A stretch of DNA of 33,706 nt from Candidatus Xenobia bacterium (lineage in GTDB: Bacteria; Vulcanimicrobiota; Xenobia; Xenobiales; QWHO01): contig BTUM01000086.1 in the NCBI GenBank assembly GCA_045863235.1, positions 1-33,706 on the forward strand, given 5' to 3'. Position 1 is the stretch's first letter; the number at the start of each line of letters is the position of its first letter. A program made the translations under genes and the position numbers. Below the pieces are notes generated by a model, which had not been told where the DNA came from, searched no databases, and saw only the letters and a program-made list of their open reading frames with translations. Below, in pieces: positions 7,287-14,577 of this stretch.

Positions 7287-8696
7287 CTACAGGGCATCGA
7301 GCAGGTCGCGCAGCTTGTTGACCGTAGGGTGGCTGCGGCCCAACAGGCCTTCCTGCAGGGTCAGCGCTTCGGCCAGGTAGACCCGGGCCTCGCGCGGGTA
7401 GCCCTGGGAGGCCGAGTAGCGGCCCATGGACTCGAAAAAGGCGGCTCGTGCCTGGCGCGTGCCCAATCCCTGGGCAGCCACCAGTTCCTGGACATGTGCC
7501 TCCAGCTGGCGCGGGGCGATTCGCAGCTGCTGGAGCACCTGCACCAGGCCCTGAAGCAGCTCGACCGAGCGTTCCGGGGCCAGTTGCACGGCCCTCTGGT
7601 AATAGGTTTTGGCGTCCAGCAACTGGTTCTCGGCCACGGCCCTCTCGGCCGCGGCAACAATCAGGGCCAGGTTGGGTCCCTCGATCTTCTCGCGAGCCTG
7701 GAGCAACCGCTCGATCTGGCTCAGCCGGGCTCGCTCGAGCTGGGTTTCGAGGTAGGCCGAGGCCCGGGTGACCTGAGCCGGAGTCATGTCGGGCAGGCGC
7801 TCCCAGAGCAGGTTGCGGAGCTCGCGCAGAGCCTCCTTGAGCTGGCCGGTCAGCTCTTGAAAGCGTCGATCCTCCACCACCCCGTCCATCTCCTCAGTGA
7901 GCTTCAAAGCCGAGGTCCAGACCACGGCCCTGAGTCCGCGGGTGCGGGGGCCCTCGAAGGCCAGACCGTCCACCACCAGCATGGTCTTGGAGGACACCTC
8001 GTCGCCGGTCAGACCCAGCGCTGCCACGAAGTCGCCCCCCGGTGCCGGCCGGGCTTCCACCTGAGCCCGGGCCGGGCGGTAGAAGGGCATTCCCTCCACC
8101 GGTCCGAGCAAGAGAACGGCCAGGCAACCCTTGAGGTCGAAGCGCCCGCGCAGGGGGGTCCCCCCCACCGAAACCGGGATGGGGCAAAGCTGGCAAAAAT
8201 TCTTGAGGTAACGGTCCTCGCGGTGGACGGGGCGGCTGAGCACCCGCTTGACGATGGCGGGGCGGCAGTCGACCTCCAGGACCACGTCGGTGCAGGGCTG
8301 GCTGAGCACGGCCCGCAGCTCGCCCCGGATGCGCAGCAGCTTGCCCGAGCTCTGCAGCCTGATCTCGCGCGGCTGCAACCCCGACGCCAGAGCCACGGCC
8401 CGGGCCAGGGCGCCCTCGGGTCCGGGGGCCTCGAGGCACTCCGACAGCCGCTCCATGGTGCTCGGCCCCACCTCGAAGCCGGGCAGCTCAAAGCGGGTCA
8501 CCCAGCCCTGGCGCTCCATCCGCACCTCACGGGCTCCTCCCCGCAGGGCGGCTTGAACCAGGCAGAGGGCGTACAGCTCAGGATCGGTCTTGAGCGGTTC
8601 CGGCTCGGGTCGCTTCACCCGGCGATGCTTCTCGATGCCGGGCCTCCGCTTCCTGGTCGGGGAGGATTGCTCTGGATGCGGCGAACTTGCAGCCAT
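7287..8696 (-). CDS. Hypothetical protein with degenerate GHKL/Hsp90-like N-terminus and C-terminal TPRs
   Basis: DPELYALCLVQAALRGGA resembles the GHKL motif I region. TPR-like AKTYYQRAVQLAP and EARVYLAEALTLQEGLLGRSHP. Start uncertain. Confidence 0.55.
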   Translation of the reverse strand: MAASSPHPEQSSPTRKRRPGIEKHRRVKRPEPEPLKTDPELYALCLVQAALRGGAREVRMERQGWVTRFELPGFEVGPSTMERLSECLEAPGPEGALARAVALASGLQPREIRLQSSGKLLRIRGELRAVLSQPCTDVVLEVDCRPAIVKRVLSRPVHREDRYLKNFCQLCPIPVSVGGTPLRGRFDLKGCLAVLLLGPVEGMPFYRPARAQVEARPAPGGDFVAALGLTGDEVSSKTMLVVDGLAFEGPRTRGLRAVVWTSALKLTEEMDGVVEDRRFQELTGQLKEALRELRNLLWERLPDMTPAQVTRASAYLETQLERARLSQIERLLQAREKIEGPNLALIVAAAERAVAENQLLDAKTYYQRAVQLAPERSVELLQGLVQVLQQLRIAPRQLEAHVQELVAAQGLGTRQARAAFFESMGRYSASQGYPREARVYLAEALTLQEGLLGRSHPTVNKLRDLLDAL

Positions 8697-8698
8697 CC

Positions 8699-9772
8699 AT
8701 GGCTCGTCTGCTCGTTTCTCTCTGCCTGCTGATGGCGCTGGCCGTCCCGTCGCTTGCCCAGGTGCCGCACCATCGCCGGCTCAAGGTGGGGTTGGTGGGG
8801 GCGCCGCCCTTCGTCCTTTATGAGAACAAGCGGCCGACCGGCATCGCGGTGGAGCTCTGGGAGGAGATCGCCGCGCGCCTCAAGCTCGAGTATGACTACC
8901 ATCACGTCGAGAACCAGCACCGAGGGCTGGAGGACCTCAGCCACAAGAGGCTGGACGTCCTGGTGGGAACGCTGAGCATCACGGCCGAGCGCGAGCGAGT
9001 GGTAGACTTTACCCAGCCTTACTATCAGTCCACGGTAGCCATCCTGTCGCCCTCGAAGGGTAGTCCCTGGGATCGACTGCGGCCGGTGGTTCGAGCGGCT
9101 GCAATCTATGGCCTGATCGGAATCTTCCTGGCTCTGCTCCTGGTGGGAATCCTGCTCTGGCTGTTCGAGCGAGGCGCTAACAAACAGTTCCCCGATACTC
9201 CCGGTCGCGGCATCGCCACCGGATTCTGGCTGGCGCTGGTGACGATGTCCACGGTCGGCTACGGGGACCGGGTTCCCGTGACCACGGGGGGGCGCCTGGT
9301 GGCTTCCATCTGGATCCTCATCTCGATGCTGATCGTGGGCTCCATTGTAGCCGGCATCTCGAGCTCTCTGACGCTCAGCCAGATCGACGCCAGTCCGATC
9401 GAGAAACCAACCCAGCTCGAGGACCTGCGGGCGGCCACGGTGGAGGGGAGCTTCTTCGAAAGTGTGGTGGGTCGTTACACCGATCGCGTCGTGCTCCGAC
9501 CGGCCCTGGATTCGGCCATCTCGGCAGTACTGGAGGGCAAGGCCGACTGCGTGGTCTATGATCGCCCAAGCCTGAGCTACTTCCTGGCCAAGTTTCCCGA
9601 GCTGCCGCTCCACCTCAGCACGTTTCCCTTCGAGCCCCAGAACTACGGCTTTGGTCTTCCGCCGGACTTTGAGCTGACCAACGATCTGAACATCGCCCTG
9701 CTGGCTATCCTCGAGTCGGGCCGCTTGAAGGAGATCGAACAGCGCTGGCAGAGAAGCCTGGACGGAGAGTGA
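8699..9772 (+). CDS. Solute-binding domain / K+ channel fusion (prokaryotic GluR0-like ligand-gated channel)
   Basis: Signal peptide, SBP family 3 S1 (LSITAERERVVDFTQPYY), TM1, pore TMSTVGYGD, TM2, then S2 (QNYGFGLP). Confidence 0.9.
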   Translation: MARLLVSLCLLMALAVPSLAQVPHHRRLKVGLVGAPPFVLYENKRPTGIAVELWEEIAARLKLEYDYHHVENQHRGLEDLSHKRLDVLVGTLSITAERERVVDFTQPYYQSTVAILSPSKGSPWDRLRPVVRAAAIYGLIGIFLALLLVGILLWLFERGANKQFPDTPGRGIATGFWLALVTMSTVGYGDRVPVTTGGRLVASIWILISMLIVGSIVAGISSSLTLSQIDASPIEKPTQLEDLRAATVEGSFFESVVGRYTDRVVLRPALDSAISAVLEGKADCVVYDRPSLSYFLAKFPELPLHLSTFPFEPQNYGFGLPPDFELTNDLNIALLAILESGRLKEIEQRWQRSLDGE

Positions 9773-9835
9773 GCAGGTGCCCCGAGCCAGCTTCAGGAAG
9801 CTGGCTCTCATCCAAGGAAAGGAGGTGCTCCTCGA

Positions 9836-10579
9836 ATGCGGCGATGGACCTCCTGTATCGCCCTGGTCCTGGGGCTGGTCCTGGCGGCCGGCCCGGCCTG
9901 GGGCGAGCAGGTCTATATTCGCAACAAACCCTTCAAAGGAACGGTCTCGGGCAAAGGGCCCGCGACCTCCGTCGAGTTGCAAGCGCTGGTTGCGGCGCTC
10001 GGTTTGCAGCTGACCGAGGTGCAGGGAAACTGGGTGGTCACCTCAGAGGGCGAAACGGCGGCTTTGCCGACCGACGCCAGCGGCACCGGACAGGTCTACT
10101 ACCAGGGTAAGCCCATCGCGACGGCCGACCAGGGGGGAGCCACCCTGGTGCCGCTCATTAGTACGGCTCAGGCTCTGGGCGCGGTGGCCAGGCACAACAA
10201 GGACATGGGCAGCATCGACGTCAACCTGCCCGTGAAGGCGGTCAGCGGCACCACCTCCGGTCCGAGCGGCTCGGGCCCGGCGCCGGCCAGCTTTGGCGGT
10301 GGTTACAAGCTGATCAACTTCTGGGCCAGTTGGTGAGGACCATGTCGGCGCTTCAAGCCGATCCTGGCTCAGTTTGAGTCAGCTCAGAAAGTTCCCATCG
10401 AGTACATCAACGTCGACGACGCCAACCAGATGAAGAAATACCCCGAGTTGGCCCAGAAGGTCCGGGGTATCCCGGCGACCTTCGTGGTCGATTCCAGCGG
10501 CAAAGTGCTGACCTTCTTTGCGGGAGGGTTGGACTACGAGGGGCTGGTCGCAAAGTACAAGCAGGCCACCAAGAAGTAA
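9836..10579 (+). CDS. Exported thioredoxin-family selenoprotein (UGPC active site) with N-terminal copper-amine-oxidase-N/stalk-like domain, 247 aa
   Basis: AGGAGG SD and signal peptide. The frame reads INFWASW-TGA(10334-10336)-GPCRRFKPIL...YINVD...VRGIPATFVVDSSGKV...KK-TAA(10577-10579), a complete Trx fold. Confidence 0.85.
10337..10367 (+). promoter_or_regulatory. Candidate bacterial SECIS hairpin
   Basis: GTCGGC (10344-49) pairs with GCCGAT (10357-62) around the loop GCTTCAA, which starts with G. A lower stem CCA/TGG is possible. It lies immediately 3' of the in-frame UGA. Confidence 0.6.
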
Positions 10580-10585
10580 GAGCTC

Positions 10586-10613
10586 GCGCGCGTCCCCCGC
10601 GCGCTTTTTCTTT
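10586..10613 (+). terminator. Rho-independent terminator
   Basis: GCGCGCG-TCCCC-CGCGCGC followed by TTTTTCTTT, 6 nt after the TAA at 10579. Confidence 0.8.
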
Positions 10614-13021
10614 CAGAAGTGCATGCGGTACTCGGACCACACCTGGTAGCCGGACCAGTTGAAGGGGTGTGGGGTGGCTCCCCCCGCACCCACCAGCGTC
10701 GCAGGCAACTGGTCGTCGGTCCAGATCCAGCGCCCCCTCAGGCTCCAGTTGGGGTGATCCAGGCCCAACAAGGGGGCGATCTGGCGCGAGTCCAGGTTGG
10801 TGAAGTCAGTGGAGCCGGTGGCCAGGGCGTGGGGATTGTAAAGCCCGGCCGGGTCGAGGTGACCCGCGAATGAAAGCGCATCCAGGCCGGCCACAGCCGT
10901 CCAGCTCGAGTCGAGCTTGTAGGAAAGCTCCACCAGTCCGGCCTGCAGGCCAAGATCCACCAGGTTCTGGCTCCCCCCCTGCGCGGGCGTGAGGATCGAG
11001 GGCCGGAACCAGTGGTTGTTGTCGTACTGGAGCTTCAAGCCGATTCGTTCCCACTGGTAGCTCACCCCGGCGACCAGGCGACGCTCGCTTCCGCGCGGGT
11101 TCTCAAGCGGTGCCAGGGCGGCCGTGAAGCTGTTGGCTGAGGTGGGTCCGTAGACCAGTGGATGGGCAAAGCCCTGAAAGAGCGGATCGAAGTACCCTGG
11201 CGCAAAGCCCACCACGTCGTTGGTGGGGATGGCCGGTCCCAGCGAGCCGGCGGGGGAGAGCACGTCGTAGAGCGAGGTGCGCGTCTGGCGATAGAAGCTG
11301 CCGTTGAGCCAAACCCGCCCGGCCTTGCGGTCGGGCTTGTCGACCGTCGCTGAGAAATTCCAGCTGGTCTTCAGCTCCAGGCCCTGGCGGTTGTGGGGAT
11401 AGCTGCCGTTGTCGTGCAAGAAGAAGCGGCCCGCGAAGTTGGCCGTGACCGGAAAGCGCACCCCCAGCATGTTGCCCGGCATGTTCATCGGGTTGTAGCT
11501 CGGATCCACCGATACGAAGGCCAGCTCGGCCTCTACCGCCGGGTCTTCCCAGTGGCCGGAGAGGGCCAGCTTCCAGGCGTCGCCCTTGCGCAGGAAGGTG
11601 GAGAACCGGTTGGAGGTGTACTCGCTGTGGCCGTATTCTGCGCTCAGCTTGACCGGCCCCCAGGCGTGGGAGGCGTTGAAGCCCACCGTGTCCAGCTGCT
11701 GGGGGCCGTAGTTGCCGCCGCCGTCCACCCCGATGGCGTTGTCGGCGGTGGGGCTCCAGGCGCTGATGGGGCGATCCACCCCCTGCAGGGCGAAGAAGCC
11801 GGGGGGGTTGACCCACTGGTTGGGGGCGTAGCCGGTCGAGGCGCCGTAGGCGACGTTGCCGCCCATCAGGCCGGTGCGCTGGCCTGCTCCGCCCGGCGGA
11901 GCCTGCTCCACCAGGCGGGCCCAGGCGGCCTGGGCCCGACCATCCTGCCAGGCGTAGCTGGCGTTGGCCCCCAGGATGGCGTGCTGGTAGTTGCTCCCCT
12001 GGAAGTTGTTGCCGTCGCCCCAGGTGGAGTGAATCAGCTCGCCAGAGAAACGGCCGGCCTCGCCGTGGAGCTGCCAGCCGTAGCCCGGAAAGCGTCCTGG
12101 CTCGCGCACCCCCAGGTTGGGCTGGCCGGCGTAGACCAGGCCGGGCATGCGCAGTTTCTCGAAGCTGCCCACCACCAGCCGGGTGCGAGTCGGTTTGTGC
12201 TCGGCCCAGAAGCGATCGAGCACCATGCGCGTAAAAGGGGTGTTGTTGAGCGGCTGGGTGCCGTTGGAAAGGTTGGCGGTCACCGGGCTGAGGAGCCACG
12301 GCGGGCTCACGCCCCAGTAGCCGTCCACGAATCGGTCCCCCTGCGAGCTGAAGGCGGCAAACTCGGCCCCGGCCTCCAGGTCGGGGGAGATGGCCAGCTT
12401 CATGCCCAGTCTGGCCAGCGAGGTGAAGCCGGCCCCGTTGGTGAGGGCGCGGCCGTTTCGGTAGTCGACCTGGGGCATTACCCCGTGGACCTGCGGACGG
12501 ACCGTGGCCAGAGCGGTGCTGGTCACCCCGGCCTGGTAGTCGAGCGCGGGGATGCCGGCTCCGCCCCCGTTGGCGGTGGCTCCTCGATTGCGAAAGCTCT
12601 GGGCCAGCACCAGCACGTCCAGGCTGCCGTAGAACTGGATCCGCTCCAGCTCGCGGACGCGTCTGTCCAGCCCCTCGGCCTGCTGCTCCAGGCCCTCCAG
12701 GCGGACCCCCAGGCTGCTCAGCTCCTCTTGCAGGCCGCCGGCCAGCTGTCGCACCGTCTCCAGATCGCTGCGGCTGGCCAGGGTCATCTCCCCCTGCTCG
12801 AGCCGTGCCAACAGCCGGGCCACCATCAGGGCCAGCTCCCAGCGCGAGGCGGTGCGGTCACCCTTGAAAGTGCCGTCCGGATAGCCTTCCACCAGGCCGC
12901 GGGCGGCCAGGGCGGCCACGCTGTCGCGGGCCCAGTGCTGCTCGGGCAGGTCGGGAAAGAGCGGGGCGGCGGCCACGCTGGCCGTCAGCCCCAGTCCCAG
13001 CAAGAGGCTGCGCAGGCTCAC
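10613..13021 (-). CDS. SLH-domain outer-membrane porin-like protein (OmpM/SomA-type architecture)
   Basis: GTG start overlapping the upstream TGA. Signal peptide, SLH (FPDLPEQHWARDSVAALAARGLVEGYPDGTFKGDRTASRWE), coiled coil, beta-rich body and C-terminal Phe (EYRMHF). Confidence 0.85.
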   Translation of the reverse strand: MSLRSLLLGLGLTASVAAAPLFPDLPEQHWARDSVAALAARGLVEGYPDGTFKGDRTASRWELALMVARLLARLEQGEMTLASRSDLETVRQLAGGLQEELSSLGVRLEGLEQQAEGLDRRVRELERIQFYGSLDVLVLAQSFRNRGATANGGGAGIPALDYQAGVTSTALATVRPQVHGVMPQVDYRNGRALTNGAGFTSLARLGMKLAISPDLEAGAEFAAFSSQGDRFVDGYWGVSPPWLLSPVTANLSNGTQPLNNTPFTRMVLDRFWAEHKPTRTRLVVGSFEKLRMPGLVYAGQPNLGVREPGRFPGYGWQLHGEAGRFSGELIHSTWGDGNNFQGSNYQHAILGANASYAWQDGRAQAAWARLVEQAPPGGAGQRTGLMGGNVAYGASTGYAPNQWVNPPGFFALQGVDRPISAWSPTADNAIGVDGGGNYGPQQLDTVGFNASHAWGPVKLSAEYGHSEYTSNRFSTFLRKGDAWKLALSGHWEDPAVEAELAFVSVDPSYNPMNMPGNMLGVRFPVTANFAGRFFLHDNGSYPHNRQGLELKTSWNFSATVDKPDRKAGRVWLNGSFYRQTRTSLYDVLSPAGSLGPAIPTNDVVGFAPGYFDPLFQGFAHPLVYGPTSANSFTAALAPLENPRGSERRLVAGVSYQWERIGLKLQYDNNHWFRPSILTPAQGGSQNLVDLGLQAGLVELSYKLDSSWTAVAGLDALSFAGHLDPAGLYNPHALATGSTDFTNLDSRQIAPLLGLDHPNWSLRGRWIWTDDQLPATLVGAGGATPHPFNWSGYQVWSEYRMHF

Positions 13022-14577
13022 TCGCTCTGCTCCCTGGCCCTGCCCAGTCGATGGCGATCGTGAGCCGCCGTCAGGTAGCGGGTCAGCACCACCCCCACCA
13101 TGGTGGCCACCAGGGCCGTGGCGATCAGGTTGATGTCGTGGGGTGGGTAGTTGGAGTAGAAAATGAAGAACCAGCTCAGGGCCGCCCCCCAGAGCACGGC
13201 CACCTGGGCGTAGAACCGTGTCAGGGCGGGAATGGGGTAGTGACCGCGCACCACGTCGCGGATGATGGAGCCGCCCCCGTTGGAGGCGGCGGCCAGGATC
13301 GGTCCCCACAGCCAGAGGGGCTCGCAGCGCGTCTGCATGGCAACCAGCACTCCGATGACGGTGTAGGCCGCCAGGCCCAGGGCGTCAAAGAAGACCAGCA
13401 CCGGGTTGTGGTCGATGTCCAGGGCGTCCACCCGCTCCTTCAGCGGGCCCGGAAAGCGCTGCACCAGCTTGAAGAAGATGTCCGCCAGCAGGACCAGCCA
13501 GGCCACCACGATGAGCGTCAGGGGATCGGCCACCACTCCTACCGGGCGGCGCCCCGCCACCAGGTCTCGCAAGACCCCGCCCCCGGCCGCCGGGGCCGCC
13601 GCCAGCACGAACGAGCCCAGCAGGTTGAGCCGCTCCCGGTAGGCCATGAAGATGCCCGAGATGGCCGCGAACGCCCCCGCCAGCACCGGGATTTCCCGAA
13701 AGAGGGGACTCTCGGTCAGGAGGGCCAGCAGCGAAGGATAGAAGTAGGAGCGAATCAGCGAGCCGGTCTCTCCGCTCGCGTGCATCTCGAGGATGATGCT
13801 GTCAAACTCTTGCACCGTCTCGGGAGCCACCGAGCGAGAGTCGAAAGCCACATGCATCGAGCTCGGGGGCATGTCCAGCTGCACGCGGCCCACTCCCTCC
13901 CAGCCGTAACGAACCAGGTAGCTCGAGCCCATCAAGGAGTCGCAGAAGACCAGGTCGATGCCGCCCGAGCCCAGGCTGGACAGGCTGTCGGCGTCGCTGG
14001 GAAACTCGATGGACCGGGCGCCCACCTCGGGGTCGTCCAGGATGCGCTGCAGCTGCTCGGGGTAGTTGTAGTCACTGGTGTAGCCGATGCGCAGCTGGCG
14101 CTGGCGGCAGAGCTGGTGTAGCAGGCGGGGATCGGTGGGAAGTCTCAGGCCAGAGTCGAGGCGATAGAAGGCGGCATAATAGAGGTCCAGGTAGCCGGTG
14201 GAGAAGTAGAATTCGTTCTGGCGCTGGGAGGTCTTCAAGGCCATGGGCAGGGCCTGGATCTCGCCCTGGCGCAGCTTTTCCTCCAGGTCGGTCCACTCGC
14301 CCTCCTGCCACAGCACCCGGTAGCCCATCTTGGCGAAGGCGCGGACGATCAACTCGGTATCCACCCCGGTGCGGCGGGCCAGTTCCCCCTCGCCCTGCAG
14401 GTAGTGGTAGGGATACATGCTCTCCCAGCCCACCCGCAAGGTGCCCCGGTAATGGGGAAGGGGAGGGTCGGAGAACTGGAGCCGGGCGATATAGCCCCCG
14501 GCGACCAGCATGGCCACGACGGCCAGGCCGAAGCCCAGCCACGTGCGCAGGGTCCAGGAGGTTGCGGGGGAGGCCAT
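13018..14577 (-). CDS. Solute-binding domain fused to TRIC/UPF0126 (YadS-like) membrane domain
   Basis: N-terminal TM, SBP family 3 domain, then two UPF0126 repeats (AFAAISG...AGGGVLRDLV; FFDALGLAAYTVIG...GGGSIIRDVV). Confidence 0.85.
   Translation of the reverse strand: MASPATSWTLRTWLGFGLAVVAMLVAGGYIARLQFSDPPLPHYRGTLRVGWESMYPYHYLQGEGELARRTGVDTELIVRAFAKMGYRVLWQEGEWTDLEEKLRQGEIQALPMALKTSQRQNEFYFSTGYLDLYYAAFYRLDSGLRLPTDPRLLHQLCRQRQLRIGYTSDYNYPEQLQRILDDPEVGARSIEFPSDADSLSSLGSGGIDLVFCDSLMGSSYLVRYGWEGVGRVQLDMPPSSMHVAFDSRSVAPETVQEFDSIILEMHASGETGSLIRSYFYPSLLALLTESPLFREIPVLAGAFAAISGIFMAYRERLNLLGSFVLAAAPAAGGGVLRDLVAGRRPVGVVADPLTLIVVAWLVLLADIFFKLVQRFPGPLKERVDALDIDHNPVLVFFDALGLAAYTVIGVLVAMQTRCEPLWLWGPILAAASNGGGSIIRDVVRGHYPIPALTRFYAQVAVLWGAALSWFFIFYSNYPPHDINLIATALVATMVGVVLTRYLTAAHDRHRLGRAREQSE

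Follow-up and report, generated by a model that had tools for sequence, protein, structure and literature searches.

Several of the predicted classes of bacterial selenoprotein that carry a UxxC motif in a thioredoxin fold are normally extracytoplasmic. The predicted UxxC families in a recent catalogue include a "thiol:disulfide interchange protein" (PF13098), a "thiol-disulfide isomerase-like" family (cd02966), a "redoxin family" (PF08534) and DsbA/DsbG-like proteins, and the same table gives Sec-thioredoxin (Trx, PF00085, UxxC) as experimentally verified (PMC13188914, Table 1). The available text of PMC1794560 places Sec-thioredoxin in Treponema denticola, Geobacter and Anaeromyxobacter, and exported bacterial selenoproteins have already been catalogued, as described in the accessible portions of PMC13188914 and bioRxiv 10.1101/2022.07.06.499078. 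Reducing pathways of the cell envelope include ScsB-TlpA-PprX of Caulobacter (PMC3322552) and CcdA-Etrx-MsrAB2 of Streptococcus pneumoniae, whose genes are described as operons (PMC3914529), in the sections of both papers that were available. PF07833 domains occur in cell-wall hydrolases, according to the accessible part of PMC4137172.

We analysed a 33,706-nucleotide stretch of DNA (the window) from a Candidatus Xenobia bacterium, for which a sequence-only reading had proposed a hidden exported selenoprotein with a W-U-G-P-C active site; it noted that UxxC thioredoxin-like selenoproteins exist, as the catalogue confirms. The frame at 9836–10579 (+) starts with the ATG at 9836, stops with the TAA at 10577–10579 and contains a sole internal stop, the TGA at 10334–10336. 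This TGA is codon 167, lies within FWASW-x-GPC and occupies the position of the first Cys of W-x-G-P-C. The called open reading frame ends there and the same frame runs on to the TAA, exactly as had been described, with the TGA on the nucleophilic Cys. If the TGA specifies Sec, the gene encodes 247 amino acids, and orthologues of equal length also carry a TGA. The in-frame UGA aligned with the catalytic Cys of homologues, as expected of a bacterial selenoprotein gene, and TGA was present at this site in 26 aligned homologues. A Shine-Dalgarno-like AGGAGG (9822–9827, +) is positioned 8 nt upstream of the ATG. An intrinsic-terminator-like stem (10586–10604) and T run, together spanning 10586–10614 (+), lie 3' of the TAA; the earlier claim that a terminator follows the stop codon thus stood, with the refinement that a weaker match to the pattern occurs within the frame at 10495–10510. 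One RNA-library contig ends at 10591, a weak hint of termination. A large frame with an SLH domain (10613–13309, −) converges on the terminator. Directly upstream, in the same frame, is a gene for a prokaryotic glutamate-receptor-like potassium channel (8687–9772, +; SBP_bac_3, Lig_chan, Ion_trans_2; TVGYG filter). Read-through from this channel gene across its TGA (9770–9772) was considered but not supported: the thioredoxin gene has its own ribosome-binding site and leader, and more distant orthologues lack this neighbour. A repetitive stretch and a small repeat-rich frame with TKESTKTGPNGQEVNQNATW repeats were also seen at the contig end (32654–33082 and 33036–33434).

One base change turns TGC or TGT into TGA, and the codon might thus reflect a nonsense mutation or a sequencing error; it might also be read as Trp or Gly under another genetic code. 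Contigs of 4/4 runs, from four studies, covered the TGA codon with zero differing letters, one DNA run possibly being the source sample, and a contig of a fifth run likewise covered it with no differing letter. Given that the contigs of all four studies read TGA, an assembly error is unlikely. RNA-library contigs spanned the gene in three studies, strand and level not being readable from contigs, and in one run extended beyond the terminator. In the genome, which is 97.6% complete, selA, selB and selD each scored over their profile cut-offs and were located together with tRNA-Sec(UCA) on contig C23, so that the machinery on which the proposal had been made to depend is present. Both selD itself and the gene for the formate dehydrogenase alpha subunit contain an in-frame TGA. 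The tRNA-Sec is the only tRNA with a UCA anticodon, and UGA is therefore not generally reassigned in this genome; with a CCA anticodon on tRNA-Trp, an alternative code was ruled out. The TGA moreover aligns with Cys rather than Trp, is retained over genera, families and classes, and is followed by a covarying SECIS candidate. Mutation, error and an altered code, already contradicted by these observations, are together extremely improbable.

A search of 41 related genomes with the read-through protein as query gave matches in 24 of them, with E no higher than 1e-8. Among the matches listed, 25 from 16 of the 41 genomes contained one TGA, which in every case was the codon aligned with residue 167. 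All 16 of these genomes had selA over the cut-off, and no match was obtained with this query in any of the 14 genomes without selA; the genomes are kin rather than independent samples, and such counts are descriptive. We found two full-length orthologues in the same genus, 90% and 65% identical, and both carried TGA rather than TGC or TGT, as the selenoprotein proposal required of close relatives. Two other genomes of the genus (about 65% complete) yielded paralogues only. When 201 genomes of the phylum were searched with a profile, 30 matched with E no higher than 1e-25; four more full-length TGA genes came to light, three of them in further families and all in genomes with selA. Cys forms of the family are also present in genomes with selA. 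One related genome, G031, has a selA match that itself contains one in-frame TGA (C21:69523–70815, +), and no TGA-bearing thioredoxin was found there with the read-through query.

In a tree built with the active-site residue masked, well-supported branches forced at least four changes between Sec and Cys, the deep branches being weak. The sister pairs L061/L066, L062/L071 and L035/L030 (support for the last, 97/68) had a hairpin only in the Sec member. Five members of the same two-domain family (L022, L023, L026, L028 and L039) have Ala in place of the active-site Cys (W-A-P-A-A/C); they form a clade nested among Sec members and are likely to be redox-inactive paralogues. At a single locus, a gene that starts with a rhodanese domain (L079:2238–3230, −) lies two genes from a Sec member, and by its N-terminus we take it to resemble tRNA 2-selenouridine synthase.

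The sequence-only reading had also noted a hairpin with a G-initiated loop after the UGA. Such a hairpin is present, but there are two, and only the second is conserved as a SECIS candidate. In the bacterial SECIS model, a stem of 4–16 bp carries a loop of 3–9 nt with G in first or second place, the minimum free energy is ≤ −7.5 kcal/mol, and the loop lies 16–37 nt downstream of the UGA (PMC13188914). The second hairpin (10364–10382, +) has an 8-bp stem (CUGGCUCA/UGAGUCAG) and a GUU loop at +35 nt, with −9.8 kcal/mol, and fits this model. The first hairpin (10344–10362, +) has the loop GCUUCAA at +13 nt, outside the spacing range, and is poorly conserved. RNAalifold, applied to an ungapped alignment of 26 TGA genes, returned only the second hairpin, in which 92.3% of cells were paired and six of the eight pairs changed on both sides. 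Its covariation score was 0.42, with 0/500 shuffles as high and slid controls reaching at most 0.11. In the first hairpin, 64.7% of cells were paired and three of six pairs covaried; 374/500 shuffles scored as high, and with its spacing this led us to reject it as the SECIS core. A stem with at least six of the eight pairs and a GUU or GGU loop was found in 24/26 TGA genes versus 0/15 Cys genes; the two exceptions come from a sub-family whose similar hairpin lies at +25 nt. Three of the four TGA genes found later have the hairpin at +34/35, with different stems, and the fourth has one at +25. Synonymous codon identity among 23 Sec genes was 753/980 (77%) inside the hairpin versus 662/1360 (49%) outside, and 170/436 (39%) for Sec–Cys pairs, these counts being pairwise and not independent. 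Of the 205,878 TGA triplets in the genome, 299 (0.15%) are followed by a hairpin like the second one, by a pattern that was defined after the family had been seen. Because the structure was first read from the same sequences, the held-out genes and the Cys controls count for most. The second hairpin is the most likely functional SECIS. SelB with Sec-tRNA would bind its GUU loop, 35 nt downstream of the UGA, and insert Sec167, a step that the pattern of conservation makes very likely.

Sec decoding competes with release factor 2, and the UGA might act mostly as a stop, with a 166-residue exported domain as the main product and read-through as a minor or regulatory event. TGA is the commonest stop among long open reading frames in this genome (3184/4909, a rough set), and the N-terminal domain folds on its own in the structure model. 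The 80 codons past the TGA nevertheless keep the thioredoxin fold and the conservation of the family, and the Cys sisters run to full length. Other genes have this TGA and hairpin preceded by a leader alone; there, a product ending at the stop would be a useless peptide. We therefore regard termination as the main outcome as very improbable. The idea that standard annotation shortens the family proved correct: in each of the nine closest database proteins (58–99% identical), the last residue is the Trp that precedes the TGA. The N-terminal domain was present in 87 of the 150 best cluster representatives; 29 of these 87 end just before the active site, as read from protein ends and not from DNA, 13 are full length with CxxC, 32 are full length without CxxC (by pattern) and 13 have other C-termini.

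The read-through protein begins with a predicted Sec-pathway (signal peptidase I) leader (residues 1–23; 9836–9904, +), composed of MRR, a hydrophobic core and A-W-G. Hydropathy reached 3.07 over 11 residues and no later segment exceeded 1.84, as judged by eye and hydropathy; the leader and the Ala at −3 are conserved in the family. This leader would direct the chain into the Sec translocon, and export by this route is highly likely. Residues 24–133 (9905–10234, +) form a confident domain in the structure model (pLDDT 90.5), with two helix repeats in one chain. Profile comparison supports kinship of this domain with Cu_amine_oxidN1 (PF07833), as a probable remote relative: hhalign gave 95.8% with E 7.2e-9 over 93 columns, and Atlas gave 0.93. 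The PF07833 HMM scored 12.3 bits on this protein, below its gathering score of 24.2; of 33 family members, 14 matched it with E no higher than 0.5, the best at 7.5e-8. A sequence search of the PDB with a profile of the domain gave 0 matches, and Foldseek returned no match below E 0.001, its top row, 8IMD, being non-significant at E 0.98. In a fold search the best Z was 4.4, and Escherichia coli amine oxidase was a weak match (Z 3.5, rmsd 3.1, 58 residues aligned). Five exported-looking proteins of this genome have a PF07833-like domain, which is probably an envelope-targeting or dimerising module common to other exported proteins of the lineage.

A Gly/Ser/Pro linker (residues 134–154; 10235–10297, +), with pLDDT under 50 at residues 135–152 and a sequence that varies in the alignment, connects this domain to the thioredoxin domain (residues 155–247; 10298–10576, +). 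PF00085 matched the read-through protein across the TGA at residues 159–240 (41.5 bits versus a cut-off of 23.5). The model of residues 150–246 (mean pLDDT 87.7) shows helix 168–184, with the (U/C)xxC motif at its start, and a plain thioredoxin fold (best Z 14.1, rmsd 2.5, 91 residues aligned), with Ile212-Pro213 at the position of the Pro loop. The protein scored 45.5 bits on TIGR01068 (TrxA, canonical cytoplasmic thioredoxin; cut-off, 96.8) and has a predicted leader; TlpA/DsbE/ResA-type NCBIfam models gave 30–39 bits with cut-offs of 123–230, and PF08534 matched marginally (26.8 versus 26.6 bits). None of the NCBIfam selenoprotein families scored over its cut-off, the only one to appear being seleno_TsoB (15.8 versus 805 bits).

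The order of leader, small domain, linker and thioredoxin domain recalls a DsbC-like disulfide isomerase or chaperone, in which dimerisation through the N-terminal domain would bring together two thioredoxin domains, each on its flexible linker. The PF07833-like domain of a Paenibacillus lautus Cu/Zn-SOD is its dimerisation domain in the available text of PMC10432803, the structure of this enzyme is the non-significant top row 8IMD, and the genome encodes both an oxidase (a VKOR fusion) and DsbD. The model, on the other hand, places both helix repeats on a single chain, an arrangement that PMC10432803 describes for the monomeric amine-oxidase form, and the N-terminal domain is wholly missing from 14 of the 26 aligned TGA genes. 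The combination of WUGPC and Ile-Pro is also, we presume, thioredoxin-like rather than DsbC-like. An isomerase of this kind is accordingly unlikely.

We take WUGPC with Ile-Pro to be the signature of reducing thioredoxins, and consider it probable that a single gene, its in-frame UGA decoded as Sec, specifies an exported thioredoxin that reduces disulfides in the cell envelope. Electrons would reach the U167-C170 pair from the only DsbD-type membrane protein of the genome (C16), which has N-terminal, membrane and thioredoxin domains, and would move on to oxidised proteins of the envelope, among which an exported Sec-MsrA and an exported glutathione-peroxidase-like protein (leader-bearing, identified by motif) are the best candidate acceptors. 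By analogy with ScsB-TlpA-PprX and CcdA-Etrx-MsrAB2, we give this electron path slightly better than an even chance. A DsbD-type gene occurs in this genome and in 37 of 41 related genomes. Counting against a specific partnership, DsbD is also found in genomes without the thioredoxin family, and a VKOR-DsbA-like fusion indicates an oxidising pathway in this genome as well, in which DsbB was not found. Across 15 loci, conserved gene neighbours were shared with the nearest orthologue only, and none of the loci had a gene for DsbD, MsrA or SelD within about 5 kb; the choice of redox partner is therefore a guess. Given that many family members lack the active-site cysteines, as in the 32 full-length representatives without CxxC, the scaffold may also have a non-redox role.

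Sec reacts with peroxides, and the selenoprotein might act directly as a peroxidase, as a selenite or metal reductase, or as a reductase in cytochrome c maturation. The weak matches to DsbE/ResA/TlpA models and the presence of three heme-copper oxidase subunit I genes fit such a role. All of those matches were far under their cut-offs, however, and the fold search matched plain thioredoxins, the DsbD partner chain of 1z5y ranking below them (Z 10.6). The genome encodes other exported AhpC/TSA-type proteins, and no linked maturation genes were seen near the gene. We consider direct action of this kind decidedly unlikely.

The exported thioredoxin is one of at least nine selenoprotein candidates in the genome, a lower bound given that the ab initio scan missed known positives at its thresholds. 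Five have an N-terminal hydrophobic leader: the thioredoxin of the window; a UxxC lipoprotein thioredoxin (C45:14246, −) that has the same SECIS and is about 40% identical in protein sequence; a UxxC thioredoxin with a hairpin at +25 nt (C4:132746, +); an MsrA in which an in-frame TGA takes the place of the catalytic Cys codon, followed by a GUU-loop hairpin at +20 nt (C77:24375–25070, −; L049); and a C-P-V-U (CxxU) protein with the strong hairpin AGACCUGC-GGU-GCAGGUCU at +20 nt (C13:64029; L048:877–1410, +). SelD (C23:78959, +), a SelW-like CxxU protein (C112:12314, −) and a Prx-like UPFC protein (C14:17116, −) have an in-frame TGA and no leader; the ninth, FdhA (UHAP; C36:51285, −), was left out of the leader counts. 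TGA was present in 15 of 23 MsrA matches in relatives, many of them with leaders. The C-P-V-U protein had no Pfam or NCBIfam match and is possibly an uncatalogued exported selenoprotein family. A broader reading is that the DsbD-type protein feeds several exported Sec-thioredoxins, the protein described here being tethered by its PF07833-like domain, which reduce the exported Sec-MsrA and other envelope enzymes in an extracytoplasmic selenium redox repair chain, and that Sec and Cys were swapped at least four times in the family, the SECIS being gained or lost in step. We put this forward tentatively, as possible rather than likely. If it is true, a bacterium with oxidases exports five of its nine or more selenoprotein candidates, all of them hidden by gene callers.

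In short, the proposed hidden selenoprotein was supported by the Sec machinery, the TGA of the closest orthologues and the contigs. Sec-thioredoxin itself is known; the architecture of leader, PF07833-like domain and Sec-thioredoxin, and Sec use in the phylum, were not found in print. None of the 119 families in the 2026 catalogue is listed with PF07833 (PMC13188914, Table 1), and the literature searched contained nothing relevant on selenocysteine use in Eremiobacter or Vulcanimicrobiota, though supplementary tables of surveys could list members. The results reveal no new decoding mechanism and no new chemistry. They would extend the bacterial selenoproteome by a domain architecture not yet catalogued and by a phylum that seems not to have been reported there, and would correct a family stored in databases as shortened hypothetical proteins. 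Sister pairs of Sec and Cys members with matched SECIS loss provide a clean natural set on how an in-frame SECIS constrains protein sequence, and the SECIS stem, which dictates the peptide L-A-Q-F-E-S, is useful for the same question.

Compared with described systems, the protein shares with Sec-thioredoxin the thioredoxin fold, a U that replaces the N-terminal Cys, a SECIS within the reading frame and a need for SelA/B/C/D, as far as the available parts of PMC13188914 and PMC1794560 describe it. It differs in its predicted export leader, its 110-residue PF07833-like domain and its low TIGR01068 score, and its lineage (Vulcanimicrobiota/Eremiobacterota) did not appear in the selenoprotein literature searched. 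Like the predicted UxxC families of PMC13188914, it is a UxxC thioredoxin-fold selenoprotein, but its thioredoxin domain, of about 93 residues, has no TlpA/DsbA-type insertion, and none of those families is listed with PF07833. The Cu/Zn-SOD of P. lautus (PaSOD; PDB 8IMD), in the accessible text of PMC10432803, likewise combines a signal peptidase I leader, a PF07833-like domain and an antioxidant enzyme domain, whereas its passenger is Cu/Zn-SOD and its N-terminal domain a shorter, dimerising unit whose structural match to our model was the non-significant one given above. The resemblance to ScsB-TlpA-PprX and CcdA-Etrx-MsrAB2, in the portions of those reports available, lies in an exported thioredoxin-like protein, a DsbD-family donor and an exported MsrA or peroxidase in one genome. 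The pneumococcal genes are in operons, whereas those described here are unlinked, and both known pathways use Cys enzymes of TlpA type, whereas here the thioredoxin and the MsrA are both predicted selenoproteins.
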